From positions 13,516,001 to 13,580,000 of the forward strand of contig OZ024748.1 of the NCBI GenBank assembly GCA_964016885.1: 64,000 nt of DNA, read 5' to 3'. Source of the DNA: Eledone cirrhosa. Taxonomy: Eukaryota. Positions 3,950 through 4,829 of this stretch are shown here, piece after piece (the first letter of the stretch is position 1; each line of letters opens with the position of its first letter). Position numbers and translations under genes: made by a program. The notes under the pieces were generated by a model. It did no database searches. It was given only the letters and a program-made list of their open reading frames with translations, and was not told the DNA's origin.

Positions 3950-4821
3950 TTATTCCAAATTGAAGGATAAGTGTTTCAAACTTTGTTTTATCATGAGTTA
4001 AAGGTCTATAGATTTTTCCATGGATTTTACTAAATTCTGTGGATGAATTTGTATCCTGATTCTCTTTTGAGATGAGTTTGAGTTATTTTTCCTAAATCTT
4101 TCGTTAACTACTTTTCCCATCTTGACGTTATAGTCGCATATATGTTATAGAATGCCGTTAGCTTCTTGCTAAAACAATCTCTATACGTCTCATTTATATT
4201 TATACTCGGATTCTTTTCCTAGAGTGCTTAAACTATCTGTGACTAATCCCGGTTTTTTTCATAAAAACTGTGATAATTATTGCTATTTTGCTGAACTCCT
4301 TGTAGAGTTTTTTTTCAGAATGTATTTGACTGCTATTTCTTGTAAATAAACATTCACTTCCATCCTGACGTCACTAGCCCCGTTTTTTCCTCATGTGCTT
4401 TTTCATAAATACACATGAAGGCGAACTAGCCAGTTTTAGAATTCCCTTTTTCGGACTATATTACTGTGAGAGCCCTGGTTTTCTGTTGAGCTCTGCTGAT
4501 GAATGATATTCCAACCGTGACCATCTCCACTGAAAGTTTTCATGAAATAGTCTTTTAAGACTATACAGAGCATTTGATGTTATTCCAAATTGAAGGATAA
4601 GTGTTTCAAACTTTGTTTTATCATGAGTTAAAGGTCTATAGATTTTTCCATGGATTTTACTAAATTCTGTGGATGAATTTGTATCCTGATTCTCTTTTGA
4701 GATGAGTTTGAGTTATTTTTCCTAAATCTTTCGTTAACTACTTTTCCCATCTTGACGTTATAGTCGCATATATGTTATAGAATGCCGTTAGCTTCTTGCT
4801 AAAACAATCTCTATACGTCTC

Positions 4822-4829
<8 letters not shown>
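3950..4829 (+). mobile_element. Non-autonomous hammerhead-bearing retroelement (Penelope-like/retrozyme-like), 1.4 copies of a 630-bp unit in (TA)n
   Basis: 3950-4199 is repeated at 4580-4829 (period 630); (TA)n on both flanks; internal hammerhead; homolog at 51498-52142. Confidence 0.8.
4490..4571 (+). ncRNA. Type I hammerhead ribozyme
   Basis: gctctg-CTGATGA-atga...tcat-GAAA-tagtct(ttta)agacta-TA/cagagc; stems I, II and III pair; AUA cleavage triplet, cut after 4565. Confidence 0.85.

Follow-up and report, generated by a model that had tools for sequence, protein, structure and literature searches.

The repeat unit and its copies

Two insertions in the window, by which we mean the whole 64,000-nt stretch of DNA analysed here, are built from one non-coding unit of about 630 nt that carries a hammerhead motif. 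Copy 1 (3950-4829) has a period of 630 nt and comprises 880/630, or 1.40 units, and comparison of the copy with itself showed that 3950-4199 matches 4580-4829 at 250/250 positions. A preliminary description, made from the letters of this DNA alone, had reported 1.4 units with 250-nt repeats that looked identical by eye, and this is what we find. Divergence between the two repeats is at most ~1.2% (95% bound), and the copy-1 locus is therefore young. Copy 2 (51496-52144), noticed earlier as a second copy of about 1.02 units at 51.5 kb, does hold ~1.02 units, with a period of 632 nt, and is 77.4% identical to copy 1 over 673 alignment columns. Its first 22 nt repeat its own 3′ tip and include eight non-TA letters that agree with copy 2 and differ from copy 1. 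The features of both insertions are as follows.

3934..3949, no strand: (TA)8 left flank of copy 1, the target microsatellite, with no target-site duplication resolvable
3950..4194, + strand: 5′-truncated upstream unit, pseudo-LTR-like repeat A (from the 250/250 match of 3950-4199 with 4580-4829)
4195..4204, + strand: internal (TA)5 spacer at the unit junction, which holds the fixed 3′ end and is a likely priming site
4205..4489, + strand: inner non-coding segment B, 70% identical to copy 2, with predicted hairpins partly common to copy 2
4490..4571, + strand: type I hammerhead motif, predicted cut after A4565
4572..4824, + strand: T-rich 3′ segment A that terminates at the fixed 3′ end and includes a predicted rod-like hairpin of ~130 nt (~4594-4723)
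4825..4887, no strand: (TA)n right flank of copy 1, from the tandem-repeat listing
51496..52144, + strand: copy 2, with tip duplicate 51500-51507, spacer 51508-51517, hammerhead motif 51812-51891 and predicted cut after 51885

The unit junction is a (TA)5 tract, with one T substitution at 4195-4204 in copy 1 and perfect at 51508-51517 in copy 2. Both insertions end at a common 3′ position that falls inside this junction spacer, and (TA)n adjoins the 5′ and the 3′ side of each; the common 3′ stop running into (TA)n had been seen beforehand, and the (TA)n at both 5′ ends can now be added. The window is AT-rich eukaryotic DNA, dense in microsatellites (255 tandem-repeat rows) and apparently octopus-like in its repeats, and its 199 (TA)6+ tracts make up 9.5% of the sequence. 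Against this coverage, the location of both window copies (2/2) in (TA)n, as had been proposed, has a chance of ~0.009 if the insertions are independent. The GC content of the unit is 34%. A BLAST search with the unit and a search for the loop motif returned no third copy of either within the 64-kb window. About 190 nt before the cut, at 4368-4377 and ~51688-51697, both copies have a 10-nt palindrome, TGACGTCA, that has kept its CpG. It resembles what we take to be a CRE-type site and could be part of an internal promoter, an occurrence that is not significant alone.

The unit lacks an ORF, as the preliminary description had stated: the longest run without a stop codon measures 83 aa and is interrupted in copy 2, and a Pfam search of eight stretches from the unit gave no match below E 0.089. 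A zinc-finger-looking stretch on the minus strand of segment B is likewise without a Pfam match. Among the 113 open stretches of the 64-kb window, neither a Penelope RT nor a GIY-YIG domain was found, and the only clear protein match is a LINE-type zf-RVT remnant; the search for a coding RT/GIY-YIG element sharing the 3′ end of the unit, which had been suggested, was thus negative within the window. We also considered a tRNA-derived SINE and rejected it for lack of a tRNA-like head, with 0 ARAGORN genes in the window and no tRNA family in the Rfam matches, searches that degenerate heads could escape.

Parts of the unit are present in 11 of 15 listed public sequence runs (7 studies), none of which is recorded as RNA. 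Runs X1, X3, X7 and X13 were aligned to the unit rotated to 4100-4729, and X8-X11, with a small share, were excluded. X1 yielded 962 contigs (216, 257, 319 and 170 at 99% or more, 95-99%, 90-95% and below 90% likeness, respectively) and X13 yielded 3092 matching reads; most of the X1 contigs and X13 reads are less than 99% alike to the unit. One X1 contig has a depth of 4629, compared with mostly 6-14 for the listed pieces that resemble single loci, which suggests a family of several hundred copies at least, depth being not itself a copy number. Two other organisms contain related sequences, organism B with 32 contigs and organism D with four, three of which align at the conserved loop II. A 487-nt contig from organism B spans the unit junction at ~98.6% identity, with three other letters and three gaps over 4100-4539, and two contigs each from organisms B and D carry an altered core upstream of the conserved loop in unphased loose ends. 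The unit is a multi-copy, diverged family in one organism, with relatives in two more.

Depth is uneven along the unit. From the hammerhead loop to the 3′ end it reaches 62,600, against 14,900 in the inner part, and this ~4x excess fits 5′ truncation but is confounded, because segment B diverges more than segment A (70% versus 77% identity between copies) and reads below 80% likeness were dropped. In X1, depth is 32,500 in 4205-4246 and 14,900 in 4247-4498, a ~2x excess that is absent from X13 and X3. The first ~40 nt of segment B may be a candidate for a Penelope-type 'tail', and neither window copy carries a tail. In addition, 132 raw reads, possibly from few loci, exit the unit at 4204 into a TA run.

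The hammerhead motif and the predicted RNA fold

In copy 1, the hammerhead motif consists of stem I (4490-4495/4566-4571), the core CTGATGA (4496-4502), a weak stem II (4503-4506/4540-4543) with a 33-nt conserved loop, GAAA (4544-4547) and a 7-bp stem III (4547-4553/4558-4564). The cut is predicted after A4565, at AUA, which according to the accessible part of PMC1636495 precedes the cut in some natural hammerheads, and the corresponding cut in copy 2 is predicted after A51885. Both copies keep the order GCTCTG, CTGATGA, stem-loop II, GAAA, 7-bp stem III, TA and CAGAGC. The motif appeared in 0/3000 dinucleotide shuffles of the unit, and 60 block-shuffled windows contained no motif in which stems I and III both reached 6 bp or more, compared with three in the real window. 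At the 37 positions of the core, stem I and stem III the two copies agree throughout (37/37), against 77.9% (415/533) outside them (P ~1e-4), and loop II, which is 30-33 nt long across copies, is identical at 26/27 (P ~0.01). Among the 40 of 119 read variants listed, none lies at the 37 critical positions (~2 expected, weak alone), five fall in stem or loop II, and two indels alter the length of loop III. This conservation of the motif supports the view that the hammerhead has been under selection, with self-cleavage as a prediction from its letters.

The complete type I hammerhead of the preliminary description therefore stands for the core and stems I and III, but less well for stem II and for its match to known models. 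Stem II of copy 1 has 4 bp, of which the pair bordering the core is A-U, and that of copy 2 has 3 bp and an A-A mismatch; the usual core-adjacent G-C pair (G10.1-C11.1) is found in neither copy. Folding of the whole unit with ViennaRNA gave stem II pair probabilities of 0.02-0.03 in copy 1 and 0.0 in copy 2, where stem I is also displaced (probability 0.0). Hammerhead-competent folds make up 5% (copy 1) and 8% (copy 2) of the local ensemble. Because stem II is weak and stem I of copy 2 is displaced in these folds, ribozyme activity is uncertain. The Rfam hammerhead models, proposed earlier as a check, had no match at gathering score across the window, and no hammerhead was among the nine matches at E<=10 for 3900-4900; the long loop II and long stem III may be the cause. 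One stem II pair is U-A in copy 1 and C-G in copy 2. G at 4542 is common in raw reads (428/639 and 259/543), so both copy-1 letters fit the decay of an older C-G pair, and the difference can be explained by CpG decay, as the preliminary description had itself allowed.

Searches of metagenomes with the loop II motif gave 0 matches, and a gapped core pattern gave 24, none of them homologous to the unit outside the pattern. We found no occurrence of the loop II sequence in the literature. The best of the 24 pattern matches, at 4960-5060 (-) of L019, lies at a bacterial gene end and combines CTGATGA, a 5-bp stem and GAAA with a following 18-bp hairpin, but stem I is not closed; it is probably not a hammerhead and was rejected as unrelated to the unit.

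Outside the ribozyme, circular folds of the unit are more stable than 25/25 shuffles in both copies (z -3.4 and -2.6), with 58-62% of the circle predicted to be paired, and segment A alone gave z -3.8 and -2.4. Both copies have a predicted rod in segment A and several hairpins in segment B. Each segment has 18 shared pairs, a number reached by 8/200 and 25/200 null runs for segment A and by 2/150 and 1/150 for segment B when the same substitutions were scattered. Of the 17 listed read variants at paired sites, 11 preserve pairing against 7.0 expected, a count not independent of copy 2. Double compensatory changes numbered 0 and 1 where 2.75 and 2.29 were expected, and the rod in segment A was absent from the RNAalifold prediction for the two copies. 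Selection on the RNA fold outside the hammerhead is suggested rather than shown by these models. A predicted helix of 4131-4138 with 4238-4245 reaches across the unit junction, with the TA spacer between its arms; the 3′ arm stops where X1 depth halves (~4246), as a second start site or tail end might.

Insertion ends and the origin of the copies

The preliminary description had supposed that self-cleavage sets the ends of the RNA. The distance from the predicted cut to the fixed 3′ end downstream of it, however, is 259 nt in copy 1 and 254 nt in copy 2, and the hammerhead is present uncut inside both copies, so the template was either uncut there or re-ligated. The upstream repeat of copy 1 begins at the position that corresponds to 4580, or 14 nt after the cut, close to the ~15 nt noted before, and no more than 1 nt at its 5′ end is homologous to the TA tract. 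Four 5′ ends were seen in all, at +14 (copy 1), ~+250 (copy 2), and ~+30 to +45 and ~-90 (X1 loose ends, taken from the 22 of 234 loose-end rows listed), and one of the four is within 15 nt of the cut (chance ~0.10). Contig depth does not drop across 4565 (73,006 at 4541-4561 and 79,333 at 4562-4582); it steps at ~4500-4520 instead, where the shared loop motif may inflate it. Taken together, these observations do not support ends set by self-cleavage. A multimer cut at an upstream hammerhead would account for copy 1 and a circle for copy 2, and ordinary truncation would account for both. Piles of X13 read ends at 4440/4443, 4588/4591 and 4666 were rejected as element ends: they lie on GAATTC or AATT and are therefore restriction ends of a reduced-representation library. 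A further pile at 4508 likely stems from a variant that creates AATT.

We favour, with a probability of about 0.6, the reading that the unit is a non-autonomous Penelope-like element of the non-LTR retrozyme type, copied by a borrowed Penelope RT/GIY-YIG nuclease, a reading drawn from two fully readable copies and the 22 of 234 loose-end rows listed. The copied template held an intact hammerhead and continued through the unit junction, and was therefore longer than one cut-to-cut linear unit; it would have been a multimer, either uncut or cut in part, or else a circle closed by re-ligation. Copying exceeded one unit and halted at varied points, giving 1.40 and 1.02 units, and each upstream repeat (250/250 positions; 22 nt) matches its own copy and not the other, though the copies are ~23% apart. 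The borrowed enzyme would nick a (TA)n tract, and the free TA end would anneal to the (UA)5 spacer in the element RNA, ~260 nt past the hammerhead, fixing the 3′ end. Such priming would explain both the fixed 3′ end and the (TA)n target. The role of the hammerhead would be to cut multimeric transcripts down to single units; it may at times also limit the 5′ end, as in copy 1, without setting the ends of most insertions. Alternatively, the (TA)5 spacer could be the relic of a tail joined by template jumping.

These proposals can be compared with what is known of Penelope-like elements. According to the accessible text of PMC8557442, their insertions are 5′-truncated partial tandems, called pseudo-LTRs, often with a 30-40-bp tail and biased towards microsatellites or (TA)n, and non-autonomous versions exist. 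A partial tandem, 5′ truncation, a fixed 3′ end, absence of coding capacity and (TA)n sites (2/2 copies) are all found for the unit, and the earlier assignment to a hammerhead-bearing, non-coding, multi-copy family of Penelope-type anatomy is upheld. Like the GIY-YIG Penelope-like elements Poseidon (PMC11167929) and Neptune, Naiad and Hydra (as far as described in the accessible text of PMC8557442), the unit has a partial-tandem pseudo-LTR, 5′ truncation, a hammerhead upstream of an internal fixed 3′ end, microsatellite insertion without visible target-site duplication and possibly a ~40-nt tail; unlike them, it has no reading frame. The same source describes non-autonomous Chlamys elements such as MRC1, which resemble the unit in being non-coding, with pseudo-LTRs and head-to-tail insertions. 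Hammerheads in pseudo-LTRs are mostly minimal in animals, where most type I motifs have a 1-2-bp helix III, and have a long helix III in fungi and protists (accessible part of PMC4209133); the long helix III of the unit is closer to the latter than to the minimal metazoan type.

For the Anolis Poseidon enzyme, reverse transcription starts inside the RNA downstream of the hammerhead, targets are AT-rich, cleavage is unnecessary in vitro, and the start site is not homologous to the cut DNA (PMC11167929). By analogy, this last property would count against the annealing-primed step proposed above. In the Anolis element the cut lies at +26 and the start at +111-118, ~90 nt apart (PMC11167929), whereas the 3′ end of the unit is 259 nt past the cut and in a target-homologous spacer.

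Non-LTR retrozymes are hammerhead-bearing tandem units expressed as 170-400-nt circles, in mussel among others (PMC7229834; Cervera and de la Pena 2020; accessible text). Retrozyme consensus units span 51-972 bp, many of them monomers, and animal retrozymes derive from pseudo-LTRs, according to the available part of bioRxiv 10.64898/2026.07.22.740005 (Li, Clavereau and Pollet 2026), which also recognises monomers as members of retrozyme families and reports that 8/9 predicted Xenopus retrozyme dimers did not cut in vitro and 1/9 did. As these sources describe the metazoan non-LTR type, the unit shares with it the lack of coding capacity, one type I hammerhead, 34% GC, no LTR, a head-to-tail junction, many copies and a predicted self-paired circle. 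At 630 nt, the unit sits inside the 51-972 bp range, so the 'large' of the preliminary description is not exceptional. It differs from the retrozymes in exceeding the experimental circles of 170-400 nt, being known here from DNA alone, and in occurring at the two window loci as 1.02 and 1.40 units with a single hammerhead each rather than as dimers or multimers. Its fixed 3′ end in (TA)n, 7-bp stem III and 30-33-nt loop II also set it apart. Neither window locus has the at least two units, each with a complete hammerhead, of a retrozyme tandem.

A classical retrozyme with a circular RNA stage, in which the hammerhead excises 630-nt monomers, ligation closes them to circles, rolling reverse transcription yields the 1.02 and 1.40 units and cleavage sets the ends, is unlikely. 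The strict conservation of the hammerhead, a 7-bp stem III that could function as a monomer, the stable circular folds of both copies and the copy-1 5′ end 14 nt from the cut all fit it. Copy 2, moreover, ends just past a full turn, where a polymerase on a circle would reach its own primer, and mussel and coral retrozymes produce such circles, as far as the accessible text of PMC7229834 describes them. However, each copy has one hammerhead, short of the 'active retrozyme' definition in the available part of bioRxiv 10.64898/2026.07.22.740005. Neither copy has two, and therefore neither can excise a monomer; no multimer occurred among the sequences examined. The lack of a depth step at the cut and the single nearby 5′ end of four also stand against it, and a 5′ end at the cut would be expected of a linear cut RNA rather than of a circle. 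The altered core in two unphased contigs each of organisms B and D hints that a core-defective lineage also spread. A more specific version, with abundant cephalopod-type 630-nt circular RNAs, nicked (TA)n annealing to the built-in (UA)5 and a monomer-active hammerhead gated by loop II, is distinctly doubtful. If this version were true, genomic 5′ ends would record the type of template, as has been proposed in the field but not shown: a pile-up just past one turn would mark a circle (as in copy 2), and one just past the cut a ribozyme-cut linear RNA (as in copy 1).

We regard it as quite improbable that the unit is the whole pseudo-LTR or UTR of an autonomous Penelope-like element, delimited by a fixed internal promoter or truncation point, with the copies as by-products. 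The ~4x depth from loop to 3′ end is as expected of 5′-truncated copies of a longer element, but the confounding by segment B divergence and the 80% likeness floor applies here too. Other hammerhead-bearing ends in the window resemble plain Penelope termini, and the Octopus vulgaris annotation lists 190 Penelope-like families, or 6.83% of the genome (accessible part of PMC13282606). Against this, both copies, ~23% apart, are self-closed with the same junction and period and contain no coding remnant, and 0 of the 22 loose ends listed (of 234) extends the junction 5′ into other sequence. A satellite-like repeat spread or duplicated at the DNA level, by slippage or recombination between TA tracts and with the hammerhead as a relic, would suit the TA tract at the unit junction, the microsatellite-rich window (199 (TA)6+ tracts) and the weak stem II, but is highly improbable given the 37/37 ribozyme positions kept against 78% elsewhere, the dispersed copies with a common 3′ end and varied 5′ ends, and the near absence of homology (<=1 nt) between the copy-1 5′ end and the TA tract.

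On the preferred reading of a non-autonomous Penelope-like element, the unit is likely a new family of a known kind, the protein-free hitch-hikers of Penelope-like elements, and a catalogued Repbase or Dfam entry is possible. Among the papers searched, we found none on octopus hammerheads or retrozymes, and the accessible text and supplement of the Octopus vulgaris repeat annotation contain 0 mentions of 'ribozyme' (PMC13282606). The long stem III, the long conserved loop II and, possibly, a built-in TA primer site are unusual in the unit. The class is already known. The route by which animal repeats with hammerheads spread, and the part played by the ribozyme in the Penelope cycle, are open questions in the field: the accessible text of PMC4209133 and PMC7229834 proposes circular templates, while the single reconstituted Penelope enzyme worked on uncut RNA (PMC11167929). 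With a family that is large and dispersed, and that combines a fixed 3′ end and partial tandems with a conserved hammerhead, the question can be tested by counting 5′ ends in one assembly.

Other elements in the window

The window contains further hammerhead-type elements, and comparison of the unit with those at 45.2, 21.2 and 20.7 kb showed no relation (best E 0.16). The element at 45201-45575 (+) lies between (TA)n tracts and is not in tandem, with a core at 45336, a 7-bp stem I, a long stem III, a weak stem II and a cut predicted after 45403. Another family is represented at 21150-21335 (-) and 9225-9360 (-), intact at 21270 and degenerate at 9.3 kb; an inverted repeat surrounds the core at 21270, and both copies run ~90 nt past the cut into a microsatellite with the same 3′ tip. 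An inverted pair at 20502-20846 with a hammerhead-like core (20725, +) has the 3′ tip of the 21-kb family and faces that family across one (TA)n tract, an arrangement like the Penelope inverted arrangement with a tail.

Among the remaining repeats, a dispersed ~190-bp sequence, presumably SINE-like, is present in a dozen or more copies, including 23338-23737, 49497-49879, 46161-46486 and 14278-14467; several are head-to-tail partial tandems, and no tRNA was found in it. Two diverged LINE 3′ remnants, at 34487-35615 (-) and 55032-55720, are 69% alike over 696 columns, the former with a zf-RVT match at E 2e-8. A 69-bp minisatellite at 24534-25939 (16 copies, 97% matches) holds an open 378-aa frame with no significant Pfam match. 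Finally, short perfect or near-perfect inverted repeats of repeat fragments lie beside (TA)n at 41590-41732, 45642-45752 and 51270-51429.
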